A stretch of 64,000 bases of DNA, taken from the NCBI GenBank assembly GCA_021734025.1, contig JAIPJS010000007.1, positions 28,441 through 92,440 of the forward strand, read 5' to 3'. The notes under the pieces are model-generated. The model searched no databases. It was not told where the DNA came from and worked only from the letters and a program-made list of their open reading frames with translations. Numbering within the stretch: the first letter of the stretch is position 1; the number at the start of each line of letters is the position of its first letter. Made by a program: the position numbers and the translations under genes. The stretch is from Fidelibacterota bacterium. GTDB taxonomy: Bacteria; Fidelibacterota; JAANXI01. Shown in pieces: positions 1 to 62,499 of the stretch.

Positions 1-330
1 TATAAAGGTATAGCGAGTAGCATTAATCTTAATCATCCCAGAGGGATCCCTGCGGGATAATCTTACTCTTACTCGATTCTACCTTGAAAAGCAGAAAGGA
101 AATGGGAGAAAGGAGAAAGGAACAGATTGAATATCCAACCGATGAATATCGCATGTCCAATGATGACGTGCCCGGCCTATACCCGCCTTGAAGGAAGAAT
201 GAAAAGTGCAGAAGGAAGAATGAAAAAAATCAACTAACAAAAGCGCAGCGAAAGCTGCGACAACAAACGATTACACGGTAACACGATGACACCCTAACAC
301 GTTGTTACTCGAACATTTGCAGACTTCGTA
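1..330. repeat. Mosaic intergenic repeat element, copy A (truncated by window edge). Order of modules: GGTATARG words, TAATCTTA words, near-palindrome cccagaGGGATCCCtgcggg (37-56), block TACTCTTACTCGATTCTACCTTGAAAAGC, GGAGAAAGG words, CAACTAACAA words, hairpin gcagcGAAAgctgc + GACAACAAAC (245-270), then TAACAC words.
   Basis: About 150 nt (1-150) aligns at roughly 85% identity to 23200-23360. The same module order recurs at 13046-13357. Read directly from the sequence. Confidence 0.6.
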
Positions 331-7832: not shown

Positions 7833-8098
7833 GTGTGGTGATACATTCCTATATGGTCACGGGACGCTTTCATAGGGATTAAAAATTTGATCGTGATGTT
7901 CAGTTAAAGCAGAGAAAGGAGAAGGGAGAAAGCAGAATGGAGCTATCCTGTATGTAATCGTTCATGGCTCTTTCCGGTCTCCTGTCTCCGATCTCCCCTA
8001 TATACCCTTATACCCAAATTCCTGGTTTTTTCCGATGTCAATCTGGAAACGTTTTTATATATTGCATGAAAAGAGGAGAACCCGGGAGGAGAACGACC
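7833..8098. repeat. Partial mosaic intergenic repeat: GAGAAAGGAGAAGGGAGAAAG words plus reverse-orientation cccctatatacccttataccc, which is the reverse complement of the GGTATAAGG words
   Basis: Word arrays match the modules of the elements at 1-330, 13046-13357 and 23171-23550. Confidence 0.4.
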
Positions 8099-10034: not shown

Positions 10035-10057
10035 TTGATAGAATACGGATAAATAAT

Positions 10058-10579
10058 GATTAAACACCGAAGTCACTGAAAAAAAATTAAACACTGAGAG
10101 ACACCGAGAAAACCACCGAAAAGCACTGAATATGACTGAATTGCTCTATCAGGATTTAACGAAGAAAATTCGGCAGGCGGCGTACGACGTCCACTCATAT
10201 TTTGGCGCCGGTTTTCTGGAAAAGGTGTACGAAAATGCATTGGTTTACGAGTTGAAAAAGTCGGGAGTATCCTGCATATCTCAGAGAAAGATAGACGTAT
10301 ATTACGAGGACAAAATCGTCGGAGAATATTATGCCGATATTTTAGTCGAGCGCAAAATTATAATCGAATTAAAGACGGTTGCAGATATCCAAAAAATCCA
10401 TTTGGCGCAATTGAAGAACTATTTGAAGGCTACGCAGTTCAAACTGGGATTATTGATCAATTTCGGTAGCAGTAAGTTACAGTTCAAACGAGTGGTCTTA
10501 TGAATCGGGCGGTTTTTACAAAGTTTTATTGTTTGTTTTGTGCTTTTCTCAGTGTTTTCGGTGTATTTCGGTGTTTAAT
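10058..10579. mobile_element. GxxExxY gene cassette flanked by inverted arrays of a degenerate approximately 10-bp repeat (AMCACYGARA). Left array 10058-10126 and right array 10540-10579.
   Basis: Left ATTAAACACCGAA...AACACTGAGA...AAAGCAC matches the reverse complement of the right gtgcttttctcagtgttttcggtgtatttcggtgtttaat. The enclosed gene is visibly AT-richer than its neighbours and interrupts the LolA-like/FtsX operon. Confidence 0.4.
10132..10503 (+). CDS. GxxExxY family protein (PD-(D/E)xK-like, TIGR04256-type)
   Basis: GEYYADILVERKIIIELK plus the overall about-123-aa pattern of the family. Confidence 0.75.
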   Translation: MTELLYQDLTKKIRQAAYDVHSYFGAGFLEKVYENALVYELKKSGVSCISQRKIDVYYEDKIVGEYYADILVERKIIIELKTVADIQKIHLAQLKNYLKATQFKLGLLINFGSSKLQFKRVVL

Positions 10580-10596
10580 ATGAGGGTACTCTAAAC

Positions 10597-13045: not shown

Positions 13046-13357
13046 AAAACGGGTATAAGGGTATATGGTATAGGATTATGTCGATTCCTAATCCTAATCT
13101 TAATCATAATCTTACTCTTAATCAGAATTGTTTAAGAGGGAAAGGCAGTATGTAGAAGGGGAAACTTGTTTGTTGTTTGTAGTCGGTTGTTGGTTGTAGG
13201 AAAAAATAGCAGTGCTTTGAAAGGAAATTGAATGCTTATTAATGATTTGCCTCAAAACAACTAACAACTAACAAAAAGCGGCTGAAGCCGCGACTACCAA
13301 CACTAAAACTATAACAACCCTTGAGCACTTTGACACTAAGTAAAGGATGTAAGGCTC
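13046..13357. repeat. Mosaic intergenic repeat element, copy C, inserted between the permease and ATPase genes. Contains GGTATAAGG words, TAATCCTAATCTTAATCATAATCTTACTCTTA, GGTTGTTGGTTG words, CAACTAACAACTAACAA, hairpin gcggcTGAAgccgc + GACTACCAAC, and CTATAACAA words.
   Basis: Same module order as copies A and B. Confidence 0.55.
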
Positions 13358-15320: not shown

Positions 15321-15529
15321 CTTCAGTGCTAGAGTGTTCAAGTGTTTTGGTGTTCGAGTTATTTCTTGATCTTACCCGTAATTTTAACTCTGTGGTCATC
15401 CGTTGTTTCTGCGTTCACCGACTTGTCGGGGACTGCGTGCTATTTTGCCGTTTTCACCTTGCCATTTTCCCGGATTTTCCCTATTTCTGTTTCCTGAATT
15501 TTCCACGCATTTAACAACTGAGAGAGACT
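15321..15529. repeat. Intergenic word-repeat spacer: GTGCTAGA-GTGTTCAA-GTGTTTTG-GTGTTCGA array, conserved motif CTGCGTTCA...TGTCGGGGACTGCGTGCTATTTT, and ATTTTCC word array
   Basis: Shares the GTGTTNAA octamer family with 37633-37769. The 23-nt motif recurs at 25174-25196. Confidence 0.4.
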
Positions 15530-18130: not shown

Positions 18131-18364
18131 ATGCGCATCAGCATCGAATATTGTAACGAGTGAAACTATCTCCCAAAAGCCGCCGGTCTGGCGGAAAACA
18201 TATTACAAACCTTCGGCACCCGGATTCAGGAACTGACCTTGCTGCCTTCCGGGGGAGGCGTCTTCGAAATCGAATTGAACGGAAGCCTGGAATATTCCAA
18301 GAAACAGACCGGATCGTTCCCAGGAGAAGATGCAATCATTGATATGATCCGCCAGCGGTTGTAA
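18131..18364 (+). CDS. selW: SelW/Rdx-family selenoprotein. The in-frame TGA at 18161-18163 is read as Sec (CxxU motif CNEU). Missed by the ORF track.
   Basis: Read-through translation gives MRISIEYCNEUNYLPKAAGLAENILQTFG...GGGVFEIELNGSLEYSKKQTGSFPGEDAIIDMIRQRL. bSECIS-like hairpin ccgcc-GGUCU-ggcgg at 18180-18194. Starts 3 nt after the pepN stop. Confidence 0.75.
18164..18200 (+). promoter_or_regulatory. Bacterial SECIS element (stem ccgcc/ggcgg, loop GGUCU) directing Sec insertion at UGA 18161
   Basis: The loop is identical to the apical loop of the E. coli fdhF SECIS (GGUCU, with the conserved G and U). The hairpin begins 17 nt after the UGA. Confidence 0.6.
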
Positions 18365-23170: not shown

Positions 23171-23550
23171 TGAAACCGGTAACGGGGTATAAGGTATAGG
23201 GGTATAAGGGTATAGAGAGTAGGGTTTTTCTTAATCTTCCCATAGGGATCCCTTTGGGATAATCATAATCTTACTCTTACTCGATTCTACCTTGAAAAGC
23301 TGAATGGAAATGGGAGAAAGGTGCAGGGAGAAGGGAGAACGGAACAGATTGAATATCCAATTTTCTAGTTCACAACACAATAGGAGAAAGTTGTTGGTAG
23401 TAACCGCTTCAGCGGTTTTTCGTTTTGAATGAAGAGCATAGAATGAAAACAACGAACAAAAGCGCGGCTAAACCAGTCGTGAGCTTGGTCGAACGAGCCG
23501 CGACTACCAACGATAATACCATAACTTAAACTCTATAACACCGGAGTAAC
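23171..23550. repeat. Mosaic intergenic repeat element, copy B (complete): GGTATAAGG array, TTAATCTT, palindrome cccataGGGATCCCtttggg, TACTCTTACTCGATTCTACCTTGAAAAGC, GGAGAAGGG words, hairpin aaccgcTTCAgcggtt, hairpin cgcggct...agccgcg + GACTACCAAC, TAACAC words
   Basis: Approximately 85% identical over about 150 nt to 1-150. Shares modules with 13046-13357. Confidence 0.6.
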
Positions 23551-24807
23551 ATGCGTGATCCCATCCTAACCCCCACATTTTTCGAACGCAATCGAGAGAA
23601 GTTCATCGCCAGGATGGAAGAGCAGAGCATTGCTGTCTTCCATGCAGCGACGCCGGTCGTAAACAGCGTGGACCAGTTCCATCAATTCCGGCAGTCCAGC
23701 GACTTCTTTTATTTTACCGGACTGGAAAAGCCGGGTTGTATCCTGATGATGCATCCGGAGGATGCCAAAGGAAAGACGACAACATTGTTTATTCCGCAAC
23801 CGGACCCGTCCAAAGAGGTCTGGGAAGGCACCATGCTGGACAAGGAGACCGCCGAAGAAATCAGTGGTATCGACGCCAAATACATCCAATGGGAAAAAAG
23901 TTTTGAAGATACGTTCATCCACGCTCAGCGGGACAGGGAGGTACTCTACGCGGATTACGATGACCTGGGGTTCAAATATGGGACGTCAAAAAATGTCGCC
24001 TTTGTCGGGAAAGTCCGCAAATCTCTCCCGGCGCTGGATATCGTAAAGGTGGGTAAAATCACTCACGATCTCCGTCGGATTAAGCAGCCGGAAGAGATCC
24101 AGCTGATCGAGCAGGCCATAGAAATCACTGGGAAGGCGCTGGAAGCTATCTGGAAACGGTTATCTCCGGGAGTCATGGAATATGAGCTGGAAGCGGAACT
24201 AGCCTATCATTGCATCGCAAACAACGCCCGCCGGTATGCGTACGAGCCGATTATCGCGTCAGGGATTAACGCGGCTACACTCCACTACATCGACAACTCC
24301 AAACAGGTAAATGATGGCGAACTGCTCCTGACTGACGTAGGAGCAGAGTACTCCCACTACTGTGCAGATATCACGAGAACAGTTCCGGTGAACGGTACTT
24401 TTACCGATCGGCAACGGGAGATCTATGAAGCCGTATTATCGGTTGAAAAGACAATCATTGAATCGGTGAAGCCTGGCGTGAAGATGAAGGAACTAAACGC
24501 GGAGGCCAAAGATATGCTTGGCGATCGGTTAATGGATTTGGAACTCATCGGTGATAAGGAGGAGACCGGGAAATATTATATGCACTCCATTGGCCATTTC
24601 CTGGGCTTGGATACTCATGACGTAGGCAGCACCAAGCCACCGCTGGAGCCGGGCAATATACTCACTATTGAGCCGGGGATTTATGTCCAGGAAGAACAAC
24701 TCGGTGTTCGTATCGAGGACGACGTACTTGTTACCGAAGACGGTTGCCGTGTACTGTCTGAAGACATCCCCAAAGATGTGGAGGCGGTTGAGTCACAGGC
24801 AGGATAA
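23551..24807 (+). CDS. pepP: Xaa-Pro aminopeptidase (M24B)
   Basis: Metal ligands in the context DVGAEYSHYCADITRT, HSIGHFLGLDTHD, ILTIEPGIY and VRIEDDVLVT. Confidence 0.85.
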   Translation: MRDPILTPTFFERNREKFIARMEEQSIAVFHAATPVVNSVDQFHQFRQSSDFFYFTGLEKPGCILMMHPEDAKGKTTTLFIPQPDPSKEVWEGTMLDKETAEEISGIDAKYIQWEKSFEDTFIHAQRDREVLYADYDDLGFKYGTSKNVAFVGKVRKSLPALDIVKVGKITHDLRRIKQPEEIQLIEQAIEITGKALEAIWKRLSPGVMEYELEAELAYHCIANNARRYAYEPIIASGINAATLHYIDNSKQVNDGELLLTDVGAEYSHYCADITRTVPVNGTFTDRQREIYEAVLSVEKTIIESVKPGVKMKELNAEAKDMLGDRLMDLELIGDKEETGKYYMHSIGHFLGLDTHDVGSTKPPLEPGNILTIEPGIYVQEEQLGVRIEDDVLVTEDGCRVLSEDIPKDVEAVESQAG

Positions 24808-25203
24808 AAGAATAGCACGCAGATACACGCTGAAAAAACGGATTATCACAGATAAAACTAAGTTTTCTGATAAGAATAAACCTGAACAGATGAAGTTGGT
24901 TTTGGCATTATTCTTTTTACTTGCAAATTCCCGGGGCGAGCGCCTGGAATTCCGGCAATCTCTATAGCGGGTTTGTGACAAAAAAAGTATGTACAACAGG
25001 ATATCCACCTGCAACAGCATATCCTGAACAGTCTGGTGTCAATAAATATGAGTAGCCCCGCCATTCATGGCGGGGAATGGAATGCCGTTTCTATTTGGGG
25101 GCTTCAGCCCCCAATGTTGCTTAGTGATCGCAGAATCACTCTGCGTTCATCCGTTTTTTCGCGAACTCCGGCCTGTCGGGGGCTGCGTGCTATTCTTTAG
25201 AGG

Positions 25204-25830: not shown

Positions 25831-28800
25831 TCAGCCATTCTCTCCGGCGAGCCGTGCCATCTGCAGCAAATAAAACCGGAGCAGTGTCTGTTCCTCCTGG
25901 TCCAGCGCCTGCTCTTCAATTTTGACCAGGCGCTCCACGTCCCGGAGCGCGCGGATTACATCCACCGGTACCTCGGAAACGTTTTCCGGGATCTGGGTGA
26001 GATATTGCACCACGGTGTGTAAAAATTGTCGCATGGAGTCGTCCTGCACATTTTTCAGCAGATCGGTCACCTGTGAGCCCAGACGGACCGCTTGAGTGGG
26101 ATCGCTGGTAAACCGGGATCCACCGGCGTCCTCGTGCTGGGTCAGTGTCTGGATGGCATGTGCCAGCTCCACAAATCGTTCCACCTGCTCGCGGATCGGT
26201 TCGCCAACCAGGTTCCATGTTTTCGCGCGCCATTCCCTGATACGGCCTGGCATCCGGAGCAGGTCTTCCATGTGAACCTGCCACTTTCCGTTGGAGCGCC
26301 CGGCTGATTTCCTCTTTGGAATAAGTGATTCCAGAGAAGTGTTGAACAGGTCAGGCTGGAGAAGTACGGCGAGATCCGGGCGGAAGAACTGGAGGAGTTC
26401 CAGATTAAAGCCGTTCCCGGTGAAAAATTCATCCGGATCGAGTCCCTGACGCCGTAACAACTCTTTTTGCAGCGGTCTGATATACTGCTGCATGGCCGCG
26501 TAATCCTCATGCAGAGCGGAGAATGCCGAATTGCTGGCCGGAAAGAGTGGCTCCATCTGGCCGATGTATTTGAGTTCGGTATCCTGATAAATTCGGAGCG
26601 TGTGAAGAATATCGTACACCGGCAGTTGCGGGAGGATATGTTTCCGGATTTGCGCCAGTCCCTCGTTGTCACTTGTGCGGGAGTCCTGGAATTCCCGGAG
26701 TGCCCGGAAGAGTCCGGTAGTCAGCTGATTAATGCCCAGTACCATAGTCTGGGAACGATTGTGCCCGATAGCACGGAGCAGGCTGCCGTGTTGCGAAAGC
26801 GGGAGGGTTTGAGCAATCTTTTGAACGATCTGCTGTCCCACGTTTTCGTCGCTGTCACGGCTGGGACGAACCACCGGGCGATCCCTGAGTGAGGGCGTGG
26901 TTCGCGCGATGAAATAGGAGATTACGTGAATGCCGACCACATCTTCCGGCCGTCCGTACAGGATCTGCCGGAAGTTATTGGTCATGAGATCCGTTAATTC
27001 CTCGTACACCGGATTCTGGTGGCCCCGCGTCAGCATCTCCAGATCCTGGGCGCCGCGTTCTTTGAATTCCAGGCGGGTATTGACGAGTGGCTCGGAGGCA
27101 CGCGCCAGTTTTTCTTCGTATGACTGCTGGGATTTCGTCACGTGGTGAAAGAGCTCGATTCGCTGGTTATTGGTCAGTGACCGCAGCCGTTCAAATACAT
27201 TACTTTGGAACGTCCGAAACTCGCCACCGGCCCAGACACCCCGGAGTGGACTCCGCGCATACGCGAGACTCCGGCGCCCGGCTTCCGAGAGGTTGCGTTT
27301 GAGCTGTAGCGCATCCGGGCGCGATATCTCAGTTGATGGCAATCCGGCATTGCCGTCGAAATAGCCACCCTGGCGTTGCATCGGTTCGCCGCTGCCCAGT
27401 TTCATCCGGATGTTCCCGACCAGGCCGTGGTTTGTAAGCCAGCGCATGGCGCGGTGCTTGGCCTCCTTGTACAGCTCGGCTCCGGCCAATTGGCTCATCT
27501 GCTGGCTCAGATCCGACCCGGCCACGAACAGCTCGCAGACCATCTCGCTGAATCGCTGAATTTGAGACTGGTCGAGCTTCCGGCTGTGTCCGGCGTAATC
27601 CCACACGCTGTCCAGATACGACTCCAGATTGTGCACTGTATCCACATCCTCGAAAAGCGGCACCACCTTAATTCGCGGAAGGTCGAGTCCGGGATTGTCC
27701 CGCAGGACTTCATCGCGACGGGACCGGAGCTTTCGTTCCAAAGATATGAACGCCTCCGGTTCGTCGGACATGCTGATCTGCAACGCCATCACCAGGCCGG
27801 GATGCCCGTACTTCCCGGCGATCTCGTTGATTTCGGTGATGTTGTGCACCGTGGCATCGATGGCAAACTGGTCCTGTGCCAGGATCATTTTTTGGTGAAT
27901 GCGCGGGGTTAACACGAAGCGTTTCAGGATATCCCGGTATGTACCGGCCTTAAGAGCCACCGCCGGATCCTCGAGGTGTTGCTCCAATACGTCGAGATTT
28001 TTCCGTAGCGTCTTCCGCAATCGCTGGTTCAGCGCAAAATAGTATTCCAGGTTTTCCCGGCGCTGATCCCGGAGTTTACGCATCTTGCGCTCTAACCGAT
28101 CATTATGTTGCCAGAGCGCCCTGACCGGATCCCTGGCCAGCCGGAGTCGCATTCCGAGTTTCCGGAGTTTGCCCGGTTGCACGCCGAACGGTAACACCTG
28201 CTGGTAGCGCTTTTCCAACTGATTGGTCAGCGATGTGATTTCATTCAGCAGGTCCCAGAATTCGCGCTTACTGGCATCCAGCCTCCGGATGTCATCCAGG
28301 AGTTCTGTGGAAATTTCTATGGTTTTATCCCGTTCCGAAAGAGATTGTAATATCCCCGAAAGTTGGGAAACGTTCTCCAGCAGGGCGGCCGCCGCCAGAC
28401 GGTGTCCCTGTCCCGATGGCCGGGTACTGCCGTCCCAGTCACCCCAGAAGGAGAGCAACAGCGGCATATCCAGGTTATACCGGAGCCGGGCATACTCCTC
28501 AGTGCCGACCATCATGCGCAGATCGTTCACCAGTTCGCTCATCTCCTCCCTGGAAAGCAGCGGCACATTTGTGCCCAGATATTCTTCGATGAGTTCGTCC
28601 GAAATTTCGTCCGGTCGGTGCTCAGGAATCCGCTCCCCGTTGAGTAGACTTTGAAACAGTTTGTTCGCCAGTATATCCACCTTCAGCGAGTTCATCTGCG
28701 TGGGATGGACGGTCCGGTCGAACATCCGATTCCTGAAATTTTCTTCTTTGGAATCCAGAGATGTCGGGATTAACTCACGTTCGAGTTGTTTGAGAACGGA

Positions 28801-31461
28801 TTCCTTATTCCGACTGGTTGTTTGTGACACCAGCGATTGGGCCATCTCCATTCTGTCTTTGAATTGTGTCGTCAGCGTTTCAAGTCGCTCCGGGAGATGA
28901 GACCGGGAAAAAATAGCCGCGTACCGCTCGGTATCGATTTCTCTGGAAAATTTCCGAAGCTCTCCGGCTATTTTTTCTTTGGAAAGCGTGGCGAGTCTCG
29001 CGGATAGTTCATTCCAGCGGTTTGCAGCATGATCGAAATGATTGGAACCGGGAGATTTCCGAACCGGCGGCGGAAGCGGTTCCCTGCTATAATTGGCGGC
29101 TTCTTCGCTGATAAGCCGGTTGAGGTCGATCAGTACCCGCCGGGCTTTATGCCGGAGTTCTTCCGCAGGATCAGCGCCGCCCAGGGTGAGGCGGAAGCTC
29201 TTGCGCGCCAGATCGAACCCTTCGGATGTTCTCGCAAAAGTGGTGAGCGGAACCAGGCCGATACCGCGGGTGGCCAGACCGATACCCAGCCAGTCCAGCG
29301 AGATGCCCGCGGGCAATTCGTCGATGGTGAGGTGCGGGTACATGGCGCCCTGCGGTGCACGGATACGAATGCCAAACGGATTCCGTTCTTCCGGCAGCGC
29401 TTCATGAGCATCCAACAGCGCCTGGAGGCGATCGTGTAAAATAGTATTCCTCATTTGCCAGAATTGACGTATATCTTCCTCGTGATTCCGGTAAAACAGG
29501 GAAGCGATGAGCACGGCAAATGTGTTCGGTACGATGCCGGCATTCATTGTGCTAAACCGCGCGAGAATCTCTTTGTCAGGGATATGTGCTACGGCCAACC
29601 GCGCACCGGCAAAGCAGTCGGTTTTGGAAAGGGAGTGAACGGTTATCAGGTTCCGGAGCTGGCTCGCCCGGATATGACCGCTCCGTTTAAGATCCTTCGC
29701 CAGGGCACGCATCGTTGGCGGACCGTTGAGAGATTCCATCGGGCCAAGATTTTCGTAAGCCAGGTCGTCAATCACGGTGATATCGTGGCTGAGTAGCCAC
29801 CGGAGCAGAAGTTTGACTTCTGAGGATTCGAATACCCTGCCGCTGGCGTTATGCGGATTGTTAAGGACAAATGCGCCGTACTCCCGCCATTCCGGATCAG
29901 CTTCCAGTTTTCCTCTGATATGATCGATGATGGCGCGGGCATCCAATGTCAGATTTTCACCCAGAGATACCGCCTCCACAGAGGGGAAGCAGTGCTCGTA
30001 CGTCCAGCTCAGGTCCGGTACCACGGCTTCACGAATTCCGCAGTGGAATCCCAGGAGACTCAACGCTGTCCTCGCAGAGCCGCTGACGACAGCGGCTGAT
30101 TCGGATTCGTATTCCGGATGATGCCGTAAGAACTGACTCAGCAGACTTTCGGTGATCTCTCCGGCGCTGAAACCGGGGTTACCGTGAACATATTTTTCAA
30201 CGATTTCATGTCGATCCATTCCCATGAGCGGATCGGAAATACCTGCATCCTCCGGGAGTACGGAGCGTCCCAAACGATCGCTGGTATCAGCCAGCCGCTC
30301 AACAAGCGATTCCGCCTTTGCCGCTCGACTTTCTACTATGTCTTGAATCCTGCTACCAAATCGTTCTGCCACTTCTGCTGTATATTCAAATTCTGTGATC
30401 GATGACGGATCAGCGACTTGCTTTTGACTATTTTCCTCTGATTCAGGTCCTCCGGAATCTCCTGAAAAAGCTCGTTCAATCTGTGTGGTGAGGAGGACGA
30501 TTTCCGCTCCGGAGGGCGTGCCCTTGAGCTGGAAGTGAATGGTCTCGAACAGTTTCACAAATTCCGCGTAGCCGGCGACGATGTTGAGAGAATCCGCGGT
30601 TATGGAAGAATGAATGGCAGATGGAGAGATGAACCGCAGCACCTGGTTCAGCATACCCGCTTCTCTGGCCAAAGAATGATGATTCAGCGCATCGTTCATC
30701 TCGATGAAAAACAGAGGATAGTCGAGGCTCATCCGGCGAAGTTCCCGGCGGACGCTTTCGCTATGAATCCTGAATAGCACCAGAAAGTGCGGTGATTCCG
30801 GAAGTGAGTTAAAGTGTGCAGAGAGAGTATCGAGGAGTTTTAACTCATCCGCTGGCGTTTGCGGGAATACCAGATTATCAAAGCTTGTCAGATGTTTCGG
30901 TATGGTATTGCCATGGGCAAATATGTACGCTGGCGTCTGGATGAGTGTGCGCGAAAGCGCATGAAACAGCACCCGCATATTTTCCTGTTGCCCACCGGCG
31001 CTGAATACGATTTCCCGGGGTTCGGATTCTCCGCCCAGACCGTAATCCAGTCCTTCTCGCTGGTGGTCCTCAAGCCAGCCCCGGACCAGTTCGGCGAGCC
31101 GGTTGGGTTTTTTTCCGGAGTAGCCACCTCTGGGGATATATTGGACGCTCTGTTCCATCGCCTCATACAGAAGCCGGAGTGTGGATTCATCGGTCTCTTC
31201 CCACAGAGTATTTTCTAGTGATCCCCTGAGCGCATCACCGTTCTGATGCCGGACATTTTTCGGTAAACCGGACACCAATGAGGCATATATATCCAGAAGT
31301 CGGCTGTCGTATACCGGATGACCGATATGGAAATTGACCTTTTTCTCCGCCGGGACGGGCGCGTTTGCTGTGGTCTCACTGATATCCGAGACCTTGACGG
31401 CCTTGAGCGGCCGAAGGCGAAAATATTCCAACGAACCGGGTGTAGTGGATGGTTGGTTCAT
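25831..31461 (-). CDS. Giant 1876-aa multidomain protein: unknown N-terminal region, PLP-dependent aminotransferase (fold type I)-like domain, and C-terminal divergent PEP-carboxylase-like region
   Basis: Aminotransferase motifs NNPHNASG (NPxNPTG-like), IDDLAYENL (DxAY), HSLSKTDCFAGARLA (SxSKxxxxxGxRxG with Lys). PEPC-like blocks ISMSDEP (ISMA/T), KVVPLFEDVD (VPLFET), EMVCELFVAGSDLSQQ...LAGAELYKEA (MVMIGYSDSxKDxG...W.LYKAQ), HGLVGNIRMKLGSGEPMQRQGG (G-rich loop), GVWAGGEFRTFQSN (GGLRVTEQGE). Continuous ORF with no frameshift. Confidence 0.6.
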   Translation of the reverse strand: MNQPSTTPGSLEYFRLRPLKAVKVSDISETTANAPVPAEKKVNFHIGHPVYDSRLLDIYASLVSGLPKNVRHQNGDALRGSLENTLWEETDESTLRLLYEAMEQSVQYIPRGGYSGKKPNRLAELVRGWLEDHQREGLDYGLGGESEPREIVFSAGGQQENMRVLFHALSRTLIQTPAYIFAHGNTIPKHLTSFDNLVFPQTPADELKLLDTLSAHFNSLPESPHFLVLFRIHSESVRRELRRMSLDYPLFFIEMNDALNHHSLAREAGMLNQVLRFISPSAIHSSITADSLNIVAGYAEFVKLFETIHFQLKGTPSGAEIVLLTTQIERAFSGDSGGPESEENSQKQVADPSSITEFEYTAEVAERFGSRIQDIVESRAAKAESLVERLADTSDRLGRSVLPEDAGISDPLMGMDRHEIVEKYVHGNPGFSAGEITESLLSQFLRHHPEYESESAAVVSGSARTALSLLGFHCGIREAVVPDLSWTYEHCFPSVEAVSLGENLTLDARAIIDHIRGKLEADPEWREYGAFVLNNPHNASGRVFESSEVKLLLRWLLSHDITVIDDLAYENLGPMESLNGPPTMRALAKDLKRSGHIRASQLRNLITVHSLSKTDCFAGARLAVAHIPDKEILARFSTMNAGIVPNTFAVLIASLFYRNHEEDIRQFWQMRNTILHDRLQALLDAHEALPEERNPFGIRIRAPQGAMYPHLTIDELPAGISLDWLGIGLATRGIGLVPLTTFARTSEGFDLARKSFRLTLGGADPAEELRHKARRVLIDLNRLISEEAANYSREPLPPPVRKSPGSNHFDHAANRWNELSARLATLSKEKIAGELRKFSREIDTERYAAIFSRSHLPERLETLTTQFKDRMEMAQSLVSQTTSRNKESVLKQLERELIPTSLDSKEENFRNRMFDRTVHPTQMNSLKVDILANKLFQSLLNGERIPEHRPDEISDELIEEYLGTNVPLLSREEMSELVNDLRMMVGTEEYARLRYNLDMPLLLSFWGDWDGSTRPSGQGHRLAAAALLENVSQLSGILQSLSERDKTIEISTELLDDIRRLDASKREFWDLLNEITSLTNQLEKRYQQVLPFGVQPGKLRKLGMRLRLARDPVRALWQHNDRLERKMRKLRDQRRENLEYYFALNQRLRKTLRKNLDVLEQHLEDPAVALKAGTYRDILKRFVLTPRIHQKMILAQDQFAIDATVHNITEINEIAGKYGHPGLVMALQISMSDEPEAFISLERKLRSRRDEVLRDNPGLDLPRIKVVPLFEDVDTVHNLESYLDSVWDYAGHSRKLDQSQIQRFSEMVCELFVAGSDLSQQMSQLAGAELYKEAKHRAMRWLTNHGLVGNIRMKLGSGEPMQRQGGYFDGNAGLPSTEISRPDALQLKRNLSEAGRRSLAYARSPLRGVWAGGEFRTFQSNVFERLRSLTNNQRIELFHHVTKSQQSYEEKLARASEPLVNTRLEFKERGAQDLEMLTRGHQNPVYEELTDLMTNNFRQILYGRPEDVVGIHVISYFIARTTPSLRDRPVVRPSRDSDENVGQQIVQKIAQTLPLSQHGSLLRAIGHNRSQTMVLGINQLTTGLFRALREFQDSRTSDNEGLAQIRKHILPQLPVYDILHTLRIYQDTELKYIGQMEPLFPASNSAFSALHEDYAAMQQYIRPLQKELLRRQGLDPDEFFTGNGFNLELLQFFRPDLAVLLQPDLFNTSLESLIPKRKSAGRSNGKWQVHMEDLLRMPGRIREWRAKTWNLVGEPIREQVERFVELAHAIQTLTQHEDAGGSRFTSDPTQAVRLGSQVTDLLKNVQDDSMRQFLHTVVQYLTQIPENVSEVPVDVIRALRDVERLVKIEEQALDQEEQTLLRFYLLQMARLAGENG

Positions 31462-35967: not shown

Positions 35968-35995
35968 TAGAACACAGAATTTCACAAAAACGACG

Positions 35996-36152
35996 GACTA
36001 GAATACCAGTCATTCCGACAGGATACAAGTCGTTTAGGGAGGAAAGGGATGGCTCTATTACCCGGGTAAAACTAGTCATTCCGACCGAGCGTCAGTGAGC
36101 GGAGGAATCTGGTAATTCACCCTCTATGAATTCTTAATACGACTGGTATTCT
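35996..36152. mobile_element. MITE-like element (~157 bp) bounded by 13-14-bp terminal inverted repeats TAGAATACCAGTC / GACTGGTATTCTA, containing two direct copies of TAGTCATTCCGAC
   Basis: Inverted repeats read directly. Non-coding. Lies in a convergent intergenic spacer. Confidence 0.35.
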
Positions 36153-36219
36153 AATCTATGGGAAACAAAACCGTCGGCGACCCTGCTACGGCGGGGATCA
36201 CCGACGGGAGATTAGTTTT

Positions 36220-36282
36220 GCCTCGCAATGAGATTGCGAGGCTTAAATATTTATCTCATAGCCTTGGAATCTTATTCCAAGG
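36220..36282. terminator. Pair of perfect hairpins in the convergent spacer (gcctcgcaat-gag-attgcgaggc at 36220-36242; ccttggaat-ctt-attccaagg at 36262-36282), likely bidirectional terminators for the thioesterase gene (+) and sucB (-)
   Basis: 10-bp and 9-bp perfect stems flanked by A/T-rich tracts. Confidence 0.4.
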
Positions 36283-36327
36283 CGGGTATTATTTACGCAG
36301 TACGTAATATGCAATACTCAATACGTG

Positions 36328-37632: not shown

Positions 37633-37769
37633 TCTTTACCAGTGTTTAAGTGTTGAAGTGTTAGAGTGTTCAAGTAGTTGCGTGTCATGTGCTCATAATT
37701 CTCATTCGATATTAAAGAGGTCCTGCATACTTTAACACCTGAACACTATAACACTCTAGCACTGTTTTA
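37633..37769. repeat. Inverted arrays of degenerate octamers between sucA and sucB: GTGTTTAA-GTGTTGAA-GTGTTAGA-GTGTTCAA ... TTAACAC-CTGAACAC-TATAACAC-TCTAGCAC
   Basis: The two arrays are reverse complements of each other around a ~60-nt unique core. Confidence 0.5.
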
Positions 37770-47418: not shown

Positions 47419-47633
47419 AAAATGAGATATGAGGTATAGGGTATAAGGAGTAAAATGATTGGAGACCGGAGCCGGAAACCGGAGGCAGGAAACTTGATAC
47501 TTGAAACTGGTAACTTAGGAACAGAGGACACAGGCCACTCGACATTTGACGACTTTTACCTAAACACTTGAACACATGAACACTTTAATACTAAAGTATT
47601 TGAAAAAATTGAGAGACGGACGGAACAACTGAT
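47419..47633. repeat. Mosaic word-repeat spacer between gltB and gltD (GAGGTATAGGGTATAAGGAG; AAACACTTGAACACATGAACACTTTAATAC)
   Basis: Same word families as the other mosaic elements. Confidence 0.45.
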
Positions 47634-52699: not shown

Positions 52700-53115
52700 A
52701 CCTTTCCTGCGGGAAGAGGGAATAGGGGTATAAGGGTATATGGTATGAGAACAGGAGTGTTAAAGTGTTACTTGTGTTATCGTTAAAAAGAACATGCATC
52801 GAGCGTACTCAATCCTATATCCAAAATGTATCGTCTGTTGGTGGTTCCCTCTTTAGAGGGGTGATCGGGAAAAACGAAAAATTTAGAATGAAAAAGGTGG
52901 TCGTTGGTTGTTGTGGGAAACTTTCCTTCCCGGGATTGCATCAGTATTATAAATATTAAGGATTCGCAATAAATCTCAACAACAAACAAAAGGGATTAAA
53001 AGGGAGATTAGGATTAAGAAGGTGTACAACGATAACACTGTAGCACTATAACACCTTAACACCCTAACACGGTCTTTTCGCATTACGTACTACTTACCAA
53101 TAAAACATTAAATAC
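52700..53115. repeat. Mosaic intergenic repeat region carrying modules in both orientations (GGGGTATAAGGGTATATGGTATGAG; GTGTTAAAGTGTTACTTGTGTTATCG; reverse complement of the TAATCTTA array; GATAACACTGTAGCACTATAACACCTTAACACCCTAACAC)
   Basis: Word arrays match copies A, B and C. Lies between divergent genes. Confidence 0.5.
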
Positions 53116-54470: not shown

Positions 54471-54908
54471 ATGAGCCAGGATTTCAAGCGTCGGACTATA
54501 GTAAACTGGTTGCTCGGAGGGGGAGTAATTGCGTGGCTGAGCGCAATATTTTTCCCGGTATTAAAATACCTCCAACCGCCGAGTATTCCGGAAGCGGTGG
54601 TTTCTTCGGTCAAGGCTGCAACTGTTAATGAACTAGCAAATAACTCCAGTAAAATATTCAAATTCGGAAATAAACCGGGCCTCTTGATCAAGACGCCTGC
54701 AGGAGAGTGGCGTGCTTTTACGGCCATCTGTACCCATTTGGATTGCATTGTCCAATATCGGGACGACCTGGAGCATATCTGGTGTGCCTGTCATAACGGC
54801 CATTACGATCTGCAGGGGCGTAATATCTCCGGACCGCCACCCAGACCGCTGGAAGAATACGACGTTAATATTCAGGGAAAAGACGTCTACGTATCGAAAA
54901 GGACGTAA
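54471..54908 (+). CDS. Rieske [2Fe-2S] protein of a bc/b6f-type complex
   Basis: CTHLDC and CACHNGHY boxes. N-terminal TM helix. Confidence 0.85.
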
Positions 54909-54916
54909 ATATATTA

Positions 54917-55980
54917 TGAAAGAGTCAATTCTAAGTTGGTTAAAAAACAGATATCCCGTTGATTCCGTCACGGAATTTGCCCAAAAGAAAAAGGTGCCTC
55001 TGTTTCAGGGGACTATCTGGTATTACTTCGGCGGAATCACCCTCTTTTTGTTCCTGATTCAGGTTGCGACCGGCATTTTACTCCTGTTTTACTACCGGAC
55101 CGGTGCCGACCAGGCGTATGAGAGTGTGAAGTTTTTAATGACAAAAGTCCATTTCGGCTGGTTGATCCGCTCTATTCACAGCTGGGCGGCGAATTTGATG
55201 GTGCTCTCTGCCTTTATCCATATGTTCAGCGTCTTTTTTACGCGGGCGTATCGTAAACCACGGGAACTGACCTGGATAACGGGGATGGTGTTATTCCTGC
55301 TGGCTATGGCATTTGGATTTAGTGGCTACCTGCTCCCATGGAATGAGTTAGCTTTTTTCGCGACTAAAGTCGGGACCGATATCGTCGGCGCTGTGCCGTT
55401 CGTAGGAGATTTTCTGCTCACCCTGTTACGCGGCGGGAGCGACGTGACCGGGGCTACGCTTTCACGCTTTTTCGGATTTCATGTAGCGCTGTTTCCGGGA
55501 ATTTTTACTCTCTTCCTAGTTATACATCTTGCGTTTGTCCAGGTCCAGGGTATGAGTAAGCCCATCGGTGCCAAAGAGGAAGAGCTGAAAACGATGCCGT
55601 TTTTTCCGAATTTTGTTTTGCGGGATCTTCTTATCTGGCTCATCGTGCTCAACGTACTGGCCATCCTGGCCGTCTTCTTTCCCTGGGAGCTCGGAGCAAA
55701 GGCTGATCCCTTCGTTCCAGCGCCAGCGGGCATCCGCCCGGAATGGTATTTTATGTTTATGTTCCAAACGCTCAAGATGTTGCCCGCACACATCGCTGGG
55801 CTCGAAGGAGAAACCGTTGGCGTCATGGCGTTTGCTATCGCAGGTATTTTTTGGATTTTGATTCCGTTTTTCGATCGCTCCTCCCAGCGGGGACATAAAT
55901 CGAAACTGTTAACGTACATAGGAATAATTGTCGTCATCTTCATTCTCGTCATGACAATTTTAGGATATACGCTCTCATGA
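54917..55980 (+). CDS. Cytochrome b (fused b6 / subunit IV type)
   Basis: Haem-ligand His pairs in polytopic helices. PEWY-like region [11 protein letters not shown]. Confidence 0.8.
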
Positions 55981-57233
55981 AACGAATACTCATTGTCACT
56001 GTATTGAGCCTGTTATTTGTATCAATCGCTTCCGGTCAACAGGAGGAAGAAATAAATACCTGCGCTGACTGTCATGAGATGATGGGGGCGCCCTACGATA
56101 GTATCGTCCATGCGCAATCCCAGGATATCCATGCCCAGAAGGATGTGACCTGTGCCGATTGTCATGGCGGGGATCCGACTACGATGGATTTTGAGGCAGC
56201 GAAGGCGCCGGAAACAAGATTTCGCGGGAAACCCGATCCCGCGGAAATTCCGGATCTTTGTGGATCGTGTCATGCTGATCCGGAATATATGCGCCAGTTT
56301 GATCCGGGATTGGCGGTCGACCAGCTCGCGAAATACTGGACGAGTCGTCACGGAGAGAAACTCCGGGAGGGGGATGCGAAAGTTGCTGAGTGCGCGAGCT
56401 GTCACGGTGCCCATGGTGTGCTGCCGGTAGACGATCCCCGCTCGCCGGTATATCCAACACGGGTCCCGGAAACATGCAACACCTGCCACGGCAATTCACA
56501 GTACATGGCTGAATACAATATTCCAACGGACCAGTACGAAGAATTCGCCGGGAGTGTGCACGGGCAAGCACTTCTCGAGAACAAGGATATCGGTGCGCCG
56601 GCATGTAATGACTGTCACGGAAATCACGGCGCTACTCCTCCGGGGATAGTTTCCATATCCCGGGTGTGCGGAACATGCCATATCAATAATATGGATCTGT
56701 TTCAGGAAAGTAAGCATGAGCCGATCTTCGACATGATGGATCTGCCTGAGTGCGAAACGTGCCATGGAAATCACGGGGTCCAACATCCCACCGATGCGAT
56801 GATTGGCACCGGGGAGGAATCTGTCTGCCTGAATTGTCACGGCGAAGGAGACAGCGGCTATAAAATGGCGGCAGCCATGTCTGAGTCTATCGACTCCCTG
56901 AAAATGGTCTACGATTCGGCTGAAGTCATGATTCAGCGAGCTGAAGAGAAAGATATGGGGGTCAGCGATCTGGAGTATTCCCTGCGGGAAGTTCGCCAGT
57001 CATTGATTCAAACCCGTACAATGATCCACAGTTTTGACGTATCCAGGGTTGAGGAGATAGAAAATGAAGGGCTGTCCGTGGGACAAGAAATTATCCGTTC
57101 AGCCAGGGAGCTTATTGATGAATTTTACTACCGACGAAAAGGGTTGGGGATTTTTACTCTGGTCATCACACTCGTTGTGATTGCACTTTATCTGAAGATA
57201 CGACATATGGAACAGCAAAAACCTTCCGATTAA
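55977..57233 (+). CDS. Multihaem c-type cytochrome (9 CxxCH) with C-terminal TM anchor
   Basis: Nine CxxCH motifs were counted. Signal peptide. C-terminal hydrophobic helix. Stop/start overlap with cytochrome b. Confidence 0.8.
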
Positions 57234-57326
57234 TTTTAAATAGACCCGGGATTCCGGGACTCGCATTGTTCTGCATTTCTAAAATGCCGGCTCAAGAGCC
57301 GAACCGGCAATAACAATGAAGGAAAC

Positions 57327-58976
57327 ATGGGCGACGACGCACCGGATTATCAGGATCTGGCTCGTGAACTCTCCACCCTCCGTACGATGGTGGAAAAGGT
57401 GCATGAGCGCGTCCGCCGGCTTGAACGAGCCGCAGGATTCAGGCCAGGGCAGATAACAACTCCTGAACAACCGAGATCAACGGAAGCGGAGGCTTTGGCC
57501 GGGACGCCTTCCGCCCCTAAAATTAGTCTTGAACAGCGTATCGGAGAATATTGGTTTGCCCAGGCCGGGATCGTAATCTTCATATTAGGACTTATTTTTC
57601 TGATCAGCTATACGTTTACCGAGTTCCGTCCATTTTGGCAAGCAGTCACAGGTTACGGGATCACGTTTTTGATCTTTGGCCTTTCCCGGCTGATGCAAAA
57701 GCGGTTCACCTTTTTGTCGGAGATCCTTTTTCCGGGCAGTTTGCTCTTATTGTACTATGTGACCCTGCGACTCCATTTTTTCCATGCGGAGCCAATTATA
57801 TCGAATAAGGCGATCGCCCTTACGCTCTTGTTAATCATTCTTGGCATCCAGCTCCGGATTACCTGGCAAAAGGATTCACAGTTATTAGCGTTTATGCCGG
57901 TACTTCTTGGCTTCTTAACGGCATTGTTGAGTGATACTCATCATTTTGCACTTATCCTGATTGTGGCAACAGCTGTTGTGGCAGCACTACTCTTTTCGAT
58001 CAAACATTGGCAGATATTTGGAATTGCTAGCATAGGTTTTACCTATGTATCATTCTTGATATATCTCTTAAATAACCCCATTCTCGGAAAAGAGATTCAA
58101 TTACTCCCCCGGCATGACTGGATGCTAGTGTACCTCGTGGCTACACTGATTGTTTTCACCTTGGTCAGTTTCCGTCCCCGGGTCAATGAGTATCTAACCC
58201 GTGTAACCCGGATTGCCCTTACTACCGTAAATTCCAGTGGATTTTATCTCGTGGCGCTGCTAGTGACCTTTCACTTTTTTCATCAGAATTTAGCGTTCTG
58301 GAATTTTGTTTTTGCTGGAGTGCTGTTTGCTATCGCCACAGCTCACTGGACAATCCGACAGAGTAAGTATTCGACCTCTTTCTATGCGAGCTTTAGTTAC
58401 ATTGCGTTAACTATCGGTATACTATCCGCAGCCGAAGCTCCCGATATTTTCCTGTATTTAGTATGGCAAAGTGCGATTGTTATCGGGACAGCGATTTGGT
58501 TCAAATCCGGTATAATCATCTGGGCGAATATGGGAATTTATTTGATTGTTCTCCTTGCCTATCTGTTCGTACCGGCGGAATCAGGGATGGTGAATGTCCA
58601 TTTTGCCATTGTTGCATTTTTCAGCGAACGCTTGCTGACTGTAGGAACGGTGCGGATTAAAAAGACCCCGGTTTTCTTCCATTACATATACGTGTTTACG
58701 GGATATGCTATGCTTGTTTACGGTTTAGCCCTCCTTTTACCGCCAGGTTACGTGAGTATGTTTTGGTTTATTGTGTCCGCCGGTATCATGGCCGTGGGAT
58801 ATGTATTGGATCTGCGATATTATAAGTGGATTGGTTTCAGCAGCATCGTTGCACCTGTATTCCGGATCTTTATTATTGATTTGGCCGCACTTGAGCCGAT
58901 TTATCGGGTTTTCTCCTTTGTGGCCATCGGAGCCGGCCTGATGGCTATCGCGATATTTTATACGCGAAAAGGGTGA
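57327..58976 (+). CDS. Polytopic integral membrane protein (DUF2339-like) with N-terminal cytoplasmic coiled coil
   Basis: About 14 hydrophobic helices following a charged N-terminus. No catalytic motif recognised. Confidence 0.45.
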   Translation: MGDDAPDYQDLARELSTLRTMVEKVHERVRRLERAAGFRPGQITTPEQPRSTEAEALAGTPSAPKISLEQRIGEYWFAQAGIVIFILGLIFLISYTFTEFRPFWQAVTGYGITFLIFGLSRLMQKRFTFLSEILFPGSLLLLYYVTLRLHFFHAEPIISNKAIALTLLLIILGIQLRITWQKDSQLLAFMPVLLGFLTALLSDTHHFALILIVATAVVAALLFSIKHWQIFGIASIGFTYVSFLIYLLNNPILGKEIQLLPRHDWMLVYLVATLIVFTLVSFRPRVNEYLTRVTRIALTTVNSSGFYLVALLVTFHFFHQNLAFWNFVFAGVLFAIATAHWTIRQSKYSTSFYASFSYIALTIGILSAAEAPDIFLYLVWQSAIVIGTAIWFKSGIIIWANMGIYLIVLLAYLFVPAESGMVNVHFAIVAFFSERLLTVGTVRIKKTPVFFHYIYVFTGYAMLVYGLALLLPPGYVSMFWFIVSAGIMAVGYVLDLRYYKWIGFSSIVAPVFRIFIIDLAALEPIYRVFSFVAIGAGLMAIAIFYTRKG

Positions 58977-59391
58977 CTTTCCCGGAAATGAGCATCAATC
59001 GGATTTCGTTGAAAAAATTTACTTTCCCTGTTGTGATGTCACGGATTTTCGTTGAATTAGTCAACGTAGGGGAAAGAAGTCCAATTATTGAGAAAAGTTT
59101 GAAACCGATTTCCTATTTGTAAAAAATAGTGTTGATATTTTCAACAATTCTGCCTAAAAAGATAAGAACCCACAGGGGTTCTGCGAATTCTGCCCTTGGC
59201 ACATTATTTGAAACATTATATTGCGTAATGAGAAGACAACAGTACAGTCAAATATTGGATTGTTGGCGGCAGACTTGCTGTTGCTCTCGAAGAATGCAAC
59301 CAATTTTTGCCGGAGATCGGTTCTGACCATTGATGTTTGGAATCCGATTTCTGGCAATTTTGTATCTTTTCAATTTGAAGGGGGATTTTTA

Positions 59392-61149: not shown

Positions 61150-61290
61150 CGGCATACTGTAGTTTCTGAGTGAACGAGAAATAAGAATTTTAGGGGGGCA
61201 GCACTTTTAAGAGCCCCCCTAAAATTTAATTTGGATGACGAATAACAAATTCCATGGCAGGATAAGTAAACAGGAATCCGGGACTACGAT

Positions 61291-62499
61291 TTGAGGACAA
61301 TTATGAGAAAGAACGGACTTGTATTCGTGTTGGCGCTGCTGGTGTTGCTGCCTATAATCGGGCAGGCCCAATCCGGGTTTTCCGGTGCGTATATCGGAAA
61401 GTTTACAACCCAGGAACGGGGGGCCGATGACGGGGCAACAGAACAGCAAATGCGTCTGTATAATCGTATCCTGTTACAGTATGAACCATCAGAAAATTTT
61501 GCATTAAAAACAGCACTGAGACGCGCAGACTATTTTCAGGAAAGTATCGGGAATACGCATCTGTACTATGCGTATGCCGACTGGGCTGTCACCCAAAATA
61601 TTGGAGTGATGGTTGGCCGGCAATATCCCTATAACAAGATGATCCGGCGGGCAATTGATGGACTCAGCCTGGATTGGCAGGTGATGCCGCACTGGTCGAT
61701 TGAAGGCATTTGGGGACTGTACACTCCGTACGATCGGGCCGGTTTAATCGAGAACCCGGAAGATGAGCACGGATATTACATGGGACTACGGTACACCGGG
61801 AATGAGAACTCCACGCTTCGGGCGTCCGGATATCAGCAGGTGAGCCAGGGACGGATTTTAAATTTCGCTGGAATGGACGGACGCTATGCCGATCTCTGGG
61901 GAATAAATTTGTACGGATTTTTTAAATATAATATCACACAAAATTTTGTACAGGAGGCAGAGGGACAGCTCCGGCGTCAGTTCGGTGAAAATTTCTCGGT
62001 TTCCGCCGCATATAAATACCGGGATCCGAATTTCGACCTGCCGGAATGGTACTGGCAGTTTGCCGTCGAGCCTTATACGAATGTCAGGGCGGGATTTGAT
62101 TGGTTTCTGACTCGTACCGGAAGTCTTTCTCTGGAATATTTTACCCGGATGATGACGGATGAAACCATCCGGCGATACAAATTGGGATGGGTTGCCTCCG
62201 ACTGGACAGCCGGAGTAGTCTATGCGGCCAACGAGGATGGCACATCAGAAGAATGGAACGCTTACGGCAGCATCCAGCATCGCTTCGGAAAAAGTCTGTT
62301 AGTGGGCGCTGGCGTTGATTACTTTGATTATGTCTTTAACGAAACGTATGAAGAACCGCTCAATGCGTTCGGTTCCAATGTTTTTGCACGGTATCGGTTT
62401 GGGAATGCCTTAACAACGGGCCTGCGGCTGTATTATTTAACCAATCCGCAATATTCCAATGACGTCCGGCTGTTGGGTGAACTCAGTTACCAGTTCTAG
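61291..62499 (+). CDS. Outer-membrane beta-barrel protein (porin-like, terminal F) embedded in the cytochrome cluster
   Basis: Signal peptide. Aromatic-rich alternating strands. C-terminal ...LSYQF. Confidence 0.55.
   Translation: MRTIMRKNGLVFVLALLVLLPIIGQAQSGFSGAYIGKFTTQERGADDGATEQQMRLYNRILLQYEPSENFALKTALRRADYFQESIGNTHLYYAYADWAVTQNIGVMVGRQYPYNKMIRRAIDGLSLDWQVMPHWSIEGIWGLYTPYDRAGLIENPEDEHGYYMGLRYTGNENSTLRASGYQQVSQGRILNFAGMDGRYADLWGINLYGFFKYNITQNFVQEAEGQLRRQFGENFSVSAAYKYRDPNFDLPEWYWQFAVEPYTNVRAGFDWFLTRTGSLSLEYFTRMMTDETIRRYKLGWVASDWTAGVVYAANEDGTSEEWNAYGSIQHRFGKSLLVGAGVDYFDYVFNETYEEPLNAFGSNVFARYRFGNALTTGLRLYYLTNPQYSNDVRLLGELSYQF

Follow-up and report, generated by a model that had tools for sequence, protein, structure and literature searches.

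A 64-kb stretch of DNA from a Fidelibacterota bacterium (contig JAIPJS010000007.1, positions 28,441 to 92,440; hereafter the window) carries in its intergenic spacers a dispersed family of mosaic elements. Chained short word arrays in fixed order, with ends that are themselves inverted arrays, add a distinct architecture to the bacterial intergenic repeats, and the host phylum, Marinimicrobia, is poorly studied. Judged by long exact words that recur in the same order and by the 90.6% identity of two copies, the elements share common descent and not composition alone. We favour the reading, to which we give about an even chance, that they are a lineage-specific mobile or recombining family, similar in kind to miniature inverted-repeat transposable elements (MITEs) and bacterial interspersed mosaic elements (BIMEs), that was inserted into formerly short spacers. 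An earlier note on this DNA had described a dispersed family of word-array mosaics, BIME-like yet unrecognised; the shared ancestry of the copies and the lack of a match in Rfam or in the literature searched support that description.

Tightly linked genes, of which sucA and sucB are an example, can have 120-340 nt inserted between the stop codon of one and the start codon of the next, which raises the question of how translational coupling and operon expression survive such insertions. The elements also break short-read assemblies and inflate the intergenic fraction of the lineage. Intergenic DNA makes up 12.9% of the window versus 6-9% of the loci from relatives, and array-bearing tracts account for about 3.4 kb of the ~7.9 kb that is intergenic.

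The window sequence is 100% identical to contig JAIPHM010000023.1 of the metagenome-assembled genome GCA_021735205.1 (Candidatus Marinimicrobia bacterium) and is also identical to the Logan unitigs of run SRR12088347. These unitigs terminate at window positions 63, 13121, and 23271, each within the ATAATCTTACTCTTA word common to copies A, C, and B (listed below), as is expected of a k-mer assembler that meets a true multi-copy repeat. Related elements were also found in independent metagenomes. An assembly or synthetic artefact, against which the earlier note had proposed a check, has nothing in its favour except the odd look of the sequence and is excluded by the agreement of three independent assemblies; we regard it as virtually impossible.

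Copies A, B, and C and their insertion relative to relatives

Whichever strand is read, an element opens with a GT-rich array (GTGTTNNN or GGTATARG, period 8) and finishes with an AC-rich array (NNTAACAC or ATAAC), and the ends are imperfect inverted word arrays of fixed polarity. Copies were counted within the window; comparison loci, labelled L with three digits, are loci from relatives or metagenomic contigs. The modules of copies A, B, and C are as follows.

1-330, + strand: copy A, its left side cut by the window edge
Copy A, left part: GGTATA-word remnant at 1-21, AATCTT words at 22-36, hairpin at 37-56, AATCTT/ACTCTT words at 57-74
Copy A, right part: GGAGAAAGG array at 88-121, direct repeat GAAGGAAGAATGAAAA at 190-205 and 211-226
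Copy A, right end: CAACTAA words at 231-244, hairpin at 243-259, AACAC array at 267-301
A 57-138 (+ strand), equivalent to B 23265-23360: best-kept A/B core, 96% identical besides one 14-nt word-unit indel
23171-23550, + strand: copy B, occupying the spacer between the proline dehydrogenase and aminopeptidase genes
Copy B, left part: GGTATA array at 23184-23222, hairpin at 23239-23258, core at 23259-23360 including a GGAGAA array at 23312-23343
Copy B, right part: internal inverted repeat at 23393-23408 and 23496-23511, terminator-like hairpin at 23402-23417, ATAAC/AACAC array at 23512-23545
Copy B, outermost ends: ACCGGT on one side and ACCGG on the other
13046-13357, + strand: copy C, between an FtsX permease gene and an ABC ATPase gene
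Copy C, left part: GGTATA array at 13051-13075, AATCTT array (period 6) at 13089-13128
Copy C, middle: TTGTTGG array (period 7) at 13166-13197, complementary to a CAACTAA array at 13256-13274
Copy C, right part: hairpin at 13278-13291, AC-rich array at 13292-13340

When A 1-138 is aligned with B 23203-23360, 125 of the 138 non-gap positions are identical, and there are two indels only, one of 6 nt (one ATAATC unit) and one of 14 nt (two GGAGAA units); whole word units have been gained and lost between copies. BLAST splits the match of A and B into segments of 57, 27, and 51 nt at 96.5%, 96.3%, and 84.3% identity, respectively. Their right halves show about 74% identity with many gaps, although the module order is the same. 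Copy C, copy B, and the 52700-53115 element are linked by exact 19-21-mers that follow one order, and a 30-mer near the right end of C is 87% identical to its counterpart. As such, the identity of about 85% over about 150 bp previously reported for A and B was slightly conservative, and the recurrence of the same modules in the same order at 13046-13357 is confirmed by exact 20-21-mers and the 30-mer. The palindrome placed at 37-56 and 23239-23258 is present at both positions; the hairpin that contains it, CCCNNAGGGATCCCTNNGGG, is restricted to A and B, and the other copies have tandem word arrays instead.

The interiors of A, B, and C hold arrays of AATCTT/ACTCTT (period 6), GGAGAAAGG (period 7), and TTGTTGG with CAACTAA (period 7), several of them mutually complementary, together with one or two GC-rich hairpins that are terminator-like on the + strand in B and on the - strand in C.

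The earlier note had also proposed a comparison of orthologous spacers, and by the alignment of three such spacers, short in related genomes and long here, the elements are insertions. The closest available relatives show 66-75% amino-acid identity. In three relatives (66-74% amino-acid identity), the codons that end sucA and begin sucB align exactly with those of the window, and the spacer spans 18-20 nt versus 137 nt in the window. The proline dehydrogenase-aminopeptidase spacer, 380 nt long here with copy B as the surplus, measures 37 nt in L007 and 70 nt in L022. The two long spacers downstream of sucB, of 572 nt in L146 and 360 nt in the window, are bounded by GTATTGC/ACGTA word arrays, and their counterparts in two relatives span 8-19 nt.

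Three elements lie within gene pairs that usually form operons (sucA-sucB, gltB-gltD, and FtsX permease-ABC ATPase); since gene identity and adjacency mark these pairs as probable operons, the elements would be co-transcribed with their neighbours. The relatives carry the same word types at other sites, plus subfamilies of their own. In L023, two copies that flank an aminopeptidase gene are alike at 105 of 133 positions, and both run from a GGTATA array through CT-rich words and a core to an AACAC array.

Other array-bearing spacers, element ends, and word constraint

The remaining array-bearing spacers of the window are listed here.

37633-37769, sucA-sucB spacer: minimal element, with a GTGTT array at 37640-37676 and an AACAC array at 37728-37764
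52700-53115, divergent spacer: element with a GGTATA array at 52717-52746 that contains a 21-mer identical to C
52700-53115, further arrays: GTGTT at 52756-52780, AACAC at 53024-53076, inner ends GTGTTATCG and CGATAACAC
47419-47633, + strand, between gltB and gltD: element with GGTATA words at 47428-47447 and a CCGGAG-type array at 47461-47493
47419-47633, further arrays: GAAACTT (period 7) at 47489-47516, AACAC at 47556-47591
15321-15529, + strand: partial element, with a GTGTT array at 15325-15358 right after a stop codon
15321-15529, further module: CTGCGTGCTATT at 15406-15444, 79% identical to 25156-25194
7833-8098, + strand: partial or rearranged element, with a GAGAAAG array at 7912-7942 and its CT-rich complement at 7967-7997
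7833-8098, further array: reverse-complement GGTATA array (TATACCC) at 7996-8016, upstream of a glyoxalase-family gene
2591-2614, + strand: GTATTGC array (period 7) right after a stop codon
10035-10131, + strand: CACYGA(R)A word array upstream of a GxxExxY (PDDEXK_3) gene at 10132-10503; a related word, possibly a separate unit
10504-10596, + strand: TYTCRGTG array, inverted, on the downstream side of that gene

The same words are present at all of the sites to which the earlier note had assigned subsets of modules (7833-8098, 15321-15529, 37633-37769, 47419-47633, 52700-53115, and near 18400). Its two rules of placement describe the commonest case but are not universal. It had set GGTATAAGG arrays immediately after the stop codons of + strand genes, yet the array at 52717-52746 abuts the start of a - strand gene and the reverse complement at 7996-8016 lies just upstream of a + strand gene. 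Likewise, it had set TAACAC arrays just upstream of start codons, but AACAC arrays are also present in the form of GTGTT arrays immediately behind stop codons, at 15325-15358 and, read on the - strand, at 37728-37764. The L022 spacer orthologous to 15321-15529 also begins with a GTGTT/GTATT array.

Words of the GTATTGC type are also found at the boundaries of the spacer that follows sucB (at 36290-36327 on the reverse strand) and of its orthologue in L146. This window spacer (35968-36327) is strongly structured, with a fold z of about -6.5 on both strands, and has two copies of GTCATTCCGAC (36009 and 36075) in hairpin-rich DNA; similar GTCATCC(C/T)GAGCG...GGATCTC motifs occur in the 572-nt spacer of L146. 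A further spacer, of ~390 nt between convergent genes (24807-25198), is bounded by a perfect 16-nt inverted repeat, AAAGAATAGCACGCAG and CTGCGTGCTATTCTTT, and has a fold z of -7.5. Its ATAGCACGCAGAT motif occurs three times after stop codons in L023, inverted at 15406-15444, and beside an AGCAC array in the unrelated L085.

Inverted arms span 37 nt at 76% complementarity in several registers at the sucA-sucB element, and 14-16 nt at 86-93% at the 52700-53115 element. Copy B has ACCGGT/ACCGG extremes in addition to GGTATA and TATAAC arrays. The two ends of A, B, and C use different words, so that the inverted-repeat match is loose.

Array density was re-run uniformly with Tandem Repeats Finder (TRF) at periods 5-9 only. 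The window has 2.06 arrays per kb in intergenic DNA and 0.11 in coding DNA; in a first TRF listing, intergenic DNA (7.9 kb) had about 26 short-period arrays and coding DNA (56 kb) had 11. The density of such arrays between genes is about 17-19 times that inside genes. Intergenic arrays per kb number 1.2-1.3 in two relatives at ~70% identity, 0 in relatives at 66% and 74%, and 0.31 in unrelated control loci. Density declines with phylogenetic distance, at 2.06, 1.3, 1.2, 0, and 0 arrays per kb.

Five arrays in the window fit the strict pattern ARCAC-N3 x4, with 0.00 expected from shuffles. Across 44 AACAC units, each of the five word positions holds 1.4-2.0 bits and the preceding base, mostly T, holds 0.7 bits, compared with about 0 bits at the first two gap positions. 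At the three gap positions, adjacent units differ by 1.87 mismatches on average and units of different arrays by 1.96. Adjacent gaps are as unlike as distant gaps, and the arrays are therefore not fresh slippage products decaying neutrally; on this pattern, the word and its 8-nt phase are under constraint. The gaps within inverted arrays are non-complementary in L118, which argues that the constraint acts on the word and not on base-pairing. The most economical reading of this constraint points to a putative sequence-specific reader at 8-nt steps, and an invariant word with random gaps and strict phase is the sign of a trans-acting reader that could be sought.

Measured from the 3' end of the AACAC strand, a gene boundary is 5-45 nt away, compared with 75-334 nt on the other side, in all five strict window arrays and in the single such array of L022. 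This polarity applies equally to near boundaries that are start codons (sense) and to those that are stop codons (antisense). Eight of nine weaker arrays in relatives, judged by eye, obey it as well, the exception being L147 451-551.

Two other descriptions of the arrays were rejected. A role as three-frame stop-codon insulators might be suspected, as 36 of the 44 AACAC units overlap TAA, TAG, or TGA, yet the stop codons and longest open runs of eight elements do not differ from those of dinucleotide shuffles. A general GT-to-AC gradient over all spacers is weak (mean +0.04 versus -0.06, p = 0.05) and is driven by the array-bearing spacers.

Known families and alternative readings

Elements of the mobile family that we favour would carry phased terminal words as predicted binding sites of a sequence-specific protein that is most likely responsible for moving or copying the elements, and their array length would change through slippage that adds and removes word units. 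They would persist where polarity puts the G-poor AACAC arm, and not the GTG/TTG-rich arm, before the next start codon. In a transcript, the GU-rich arm by the upstream stop codon would pair loosely with the AC-rich arm by the downstream start codon, and a terminating ribosome would open this pairing, so that operons could tolerate the insertions. We infer the mechanism of spread, and any role at the RNA level, from sequence.

The BIMEs of enterobacteria are dispersed, non-coding, strictly intergenic mosaics of short motifs that alternate in orientation; they also occur in operons, are co-transcribed, and can form hairpins. Their repetitive extragenic palindromic (REP) unit is an imperfect palindrome of 20-40 nt with a conserved 5' GTAG, and the gene for the REP-associated tyrosine transposase (RAYT, a Y1 transposase) is flanked by REPs. 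The present elements are likewise dispersed, non-coding, intergenic mosaics of short motifs, including inside operons. However, they belong to another phylum, have no shared 20-40-nt palindrome or GTAG head, and are built of 6-8-nt word arrays. With no common palindromic unit, they are not REPs or BIMEs as defined; no RAYT gene was seen in the window. BOX elements of Streptococcus pneumoniae consist of boxA, a variable number of boxB, and boxC, are intergenic, and give transcripts that can fold. Modular order, intergenic location, and foldable transcripts are shared with BOX, whose modules are 45-60 nt long and unrelated in sequence and host.

Most of the features of MITEs are present. The elements are small (137-416 nt), non-coding, and multi-copy, with at least eight array-bearing spacers in 64 kb; they have terminal inverted repeats at the sucA-sucB element, the 52700-53115 element, and the ends of B, though loose ones in A, B, and C; and they are present or absent at orthologous sites in three spacers, a comparison limited to relatives at 66-74% identity. 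A confirmed target-site duplication and a parent element are missing, and no parent insertion sequence with the same ends lies within the window. The BrickBuilt MITE of Porphyromonas gingivalis has a single 23-nt minisatellite between leader and tail (PMC4596501). It shares with the present family small, non-coding, multi-copy intergenic copies, inverted ends, an internal tandem repeat, and a host from the Fibrobacteres-Chlorobi-Bacteroidetes (FCB) group (PMC4596501). In contrast to BrickBuilt, the present elements chain several different 6-8-nt arrays in a set order and have word arrays for inverted ends.

Heptameric intergenic repeats include GGGAATC in Xanthomonas, GGGGA(T/C)T in Nostoc, and tandem heptanucleotides in Calothrix, and those of Xanthomonas and Nostoc vary in length between relatives, which has been attributed to polymerase slippage (PMC4692102). 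They resemble the present family in that 7-nt tandem arrays are enriched intergenically, occur in operons (pecE-pecF), sometimes form inverted pairs, and occupy the same spacers in relatives with variation in length and sequence (PMC4692102). Nevertheless, each is one near-perfect, G-rich, quadruplex-capable motif (PMC4692102), whereas many degenerate words with a conserved core are found here, in modules of fixed order, and copying between loci extends to non-repeat segments. Heptameric simple sequence repeats and short tandemly repeated repetitive (STRR) sequences therefore do not describe elements with periods of 6, 7, and 8, several words per spacer, TRF matches of 70-94%, and a core that is kept.

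Rfam, a search proposed in the earlier note, gave no match on the elements at gathering thresholds, and two matches at E < 1 lie outside them. In literature searches on Marinimicrobia repeats, STRR, and GxxExxY, no description of this element family was found, and the window has no tRNA or tmRNA genes. A viral origin was rejected, as the A/B core and the GGTATA-to-AACAC composite pattern are without a match in IMG/VR.

Several points weigh against a mobile family. No protein in the window has a transposase, Y1_Tnp, or RAYT domain, and no autonomous partner is known. Target-site duplications are unconvincing, the only candidates being TAAA at the sucA-sucB element and CCGG(AG)TAAC at B, and the empty sites of relatives are highly diverged. 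Insertion is judged from distant relatives (66-74% amino-acid identity), none of the same species, and deletion in the lineages of the relatives, or gradual expansion of the spacers here, may account for the same lengths. Some arrays have no partner (15325-15358). The identity of A and B is very uneven, at 96% in the core versus about 74% in the gapped right half, a pattern that recombination, gene conversion, or selection on the core fits better than a single recent cut-and-paste event. Finally, arrays at orthologous spacers of relatives at 70-74% identity retain the word, which hints at constraint at the level of the host rather than selfish spread.

Such a host constraint is central to the reading in which the AACAC/GTGTT words in 8-nt phase, and perhaps others, would be cooperative sites of a host protein that mark or insulate gene boundaries, the mosaics merely carrying the sites. 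We consider this unlikely; the candidate protein would be a ribbon-helix-helix-type binder or another oligomerising DNA- or RNA-binding protein. The analogy is with MetJ (8-bp met boxes), omega (WATCACW heptads), and ParG (ACTC boxes with 4-bp spacers), which bind arrays phased at 7-8 bp, both direct and inverted. A 4-5-bp core at a 7-8-bp phase in direct and inverted runs is found here as well, but those arrays serve specific operons or plasmid partition loci with a known protein, whereas dozens of sites beside unrelated genes and no known protein are seen here. The word kept at a strict phase amid random gaps, with adjacent units no more alike than distant ones and no complementarity between the gaps of the inverted arrays in L118, is consistent with protein sites, as is persistence at the orthologous spacers of relatives at 70-74%. 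Moreover, in unrelated metagenomic bacteria, among the matches listed, AACAC arrays in this phase have a median distance of 17 nt to a gene boundary, with varied housekeeping genes downstream, including a Cyclobacteriaceae RuvB locus. However, those matches owe their selection to the search pattern, with many plain microsatellites or telomere-like repeats among them, at least five word types in fixed order would demand several proteins, and no candidate protein was identified. The arrays are also absent from orthologous spacers of several relatives with intact operons, and hence are dispensable.

It is also possible, though quite unlikely in our estimate, that the elements act mainly as structured intercistronic RNA, in which GU-rich 5' arrays and AC- or CU-rich 3' arrays would form long imperfect hairpins with G-U pairs and serve, like REPs, in mRNA stability, RNase III processing, or translational coupling. 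Three elements do sit between gene pairs that normally form operons, complementary arrays are nested (TTGTTGG/CAACTAA, GAGAAAG with its CT-rich complement, and GTTGGTAGT/ACTACCAAC), and fold z values are strong for B (-4.2, or -2.95 sense versus -1.0 antisense), C (-2.1 to -2.95), and the sucA-sucB element (-3.2 to -4.5). Yet there is no excess fold at 47419 (z about 0), 15321 (z > 0), or 7833 (z about -0.2), no consistent advantage of sense over antisense once composition is controlled, and no co-variation for pairing in the gaps between words, the copies being few for covariation. Uniform RNA structure was accordingly rejected as a defining property. Both this reading and that of host-protein sites are compatible with a mobile family. 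Neutral, slippage-made, cryptic simple sequence in weakly selected spacers, with words shared through composition and mutational bias, is very unlikely. Slippage is suggested by the A/B indels of whole word units, by the long near-perfect (GGTATAAG)n and (CAACACNT)n runs of L109, and by the length-variable heptameric repeats of Xanthomonas and Nostoc (PMC4692102). Neutral decay, however, should strike words and gaps alike, yet here the gaps are random around a word that hardly varies; many loci, in relatives as well, repeat the word types in one order, and long exact matches between loci need copying between sites.

Metagenomic distribution and neighbouring genes

A metagenome scan for phased ARCAC arrays returned at least 120 loci, a mixed set that is biased by the search pattern and gives no clean census. 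The matches include many microsatellites, (CA)n tracts, and telomere-like (CCCTAACA)n at contig ends; L030, L091, L092, and L137 have perfect (CCCTAACA)n at their extreme contig ends and look like 8-nt eukaryotic telomeric repeats. Among the matches listed, a window-like subset has degenerate gaps and often an inverted GTGYT partner array, on contigs of 39% to 67% G+C. Its arrays lie directly upstream of genes for ribosomal protein S7, LpxB, GcvT, isocitrate dehydrogenase, NrdA, TruA, RsmE, CdsA, and Cyclobacteriaceae RuvB. For 19 degenerate metagenomic arrays, again among the matches listed, the downstream boundary is the nearer one in 14, at medians of 17 versus 120 nt. Open reading frame (ORF) calling in the metagenomes was crude, although nine of ten predicted proteins equal called genes exactly. 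The unrelated contig L109 (53% G+C) runs from a long (GGTATAAG)n array through an AACAC array to a gene start, the same module order as in the window.

This subset supports a broader reading, in which the arrays would be a widespread gene-boundary signal of the FCB group and possibly beyond, recognised by an oligomerising protein with the AC-rich strand running into the gene. The Marinimicrobia mosaics would then be vehicles of the signal, and GxxExxY perhaps an autonomous partner or the reader. Because the sample is biased by the pattern, we consider this reading distinctly unlikely.

The small GxxExxY (PDDEXK_3) gene, of nuclease fold, is itself flanked by inverted arrays, CACYGA(R)A upstream and TYTCRGTG downstream, in the window (10035-10596), in L151 (2420-2935) and L152 (2398-3322) of Marinimicrobia, and in L155 (2292-2950) of Cloacimonetes. 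A GxxExxY gene in the unrelated L073 (10950-11900) is flanked likewise, with the word CACAAAG/CTTTGTG, and L152 has a degenerate second gene copy between two such arrays. Many GxxExxY homologues lie on very short contigs, as expected of repeat-flanked genes. A neighbourhood link between AACAC arrays and GxxExxY was rejected, with one gene (L073) in 677 kb of array-bearing metagenome loci, among the matches listed.

Other features of the window are recorded here in their own right. A small ORF at 18131-18364 has an in-frame TGA in a C-N-E-U motif (MRISIEYCNE*NYLPKAAGLAENIL...) and looks like a selenoprotein of the Rdx/SelW type; a similar ORF with TGA at the same place begins near position 2510 of L007. 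The cluster at 54471-63391 encodes a Rieske protein, cytochrome b, and several multihaem c-type cytochromes (Cytochrome_C7, Paired_CXXCH, and MtrC-like domains), which suggests a respiratory or extracellular electron-transfer module. On the - strand, an ORF of 1876 amino acids at 25831-31461 has an aminotransferase class I/II domain as its sole annotated domain, and its synteny is kept in all of the relatives examined.
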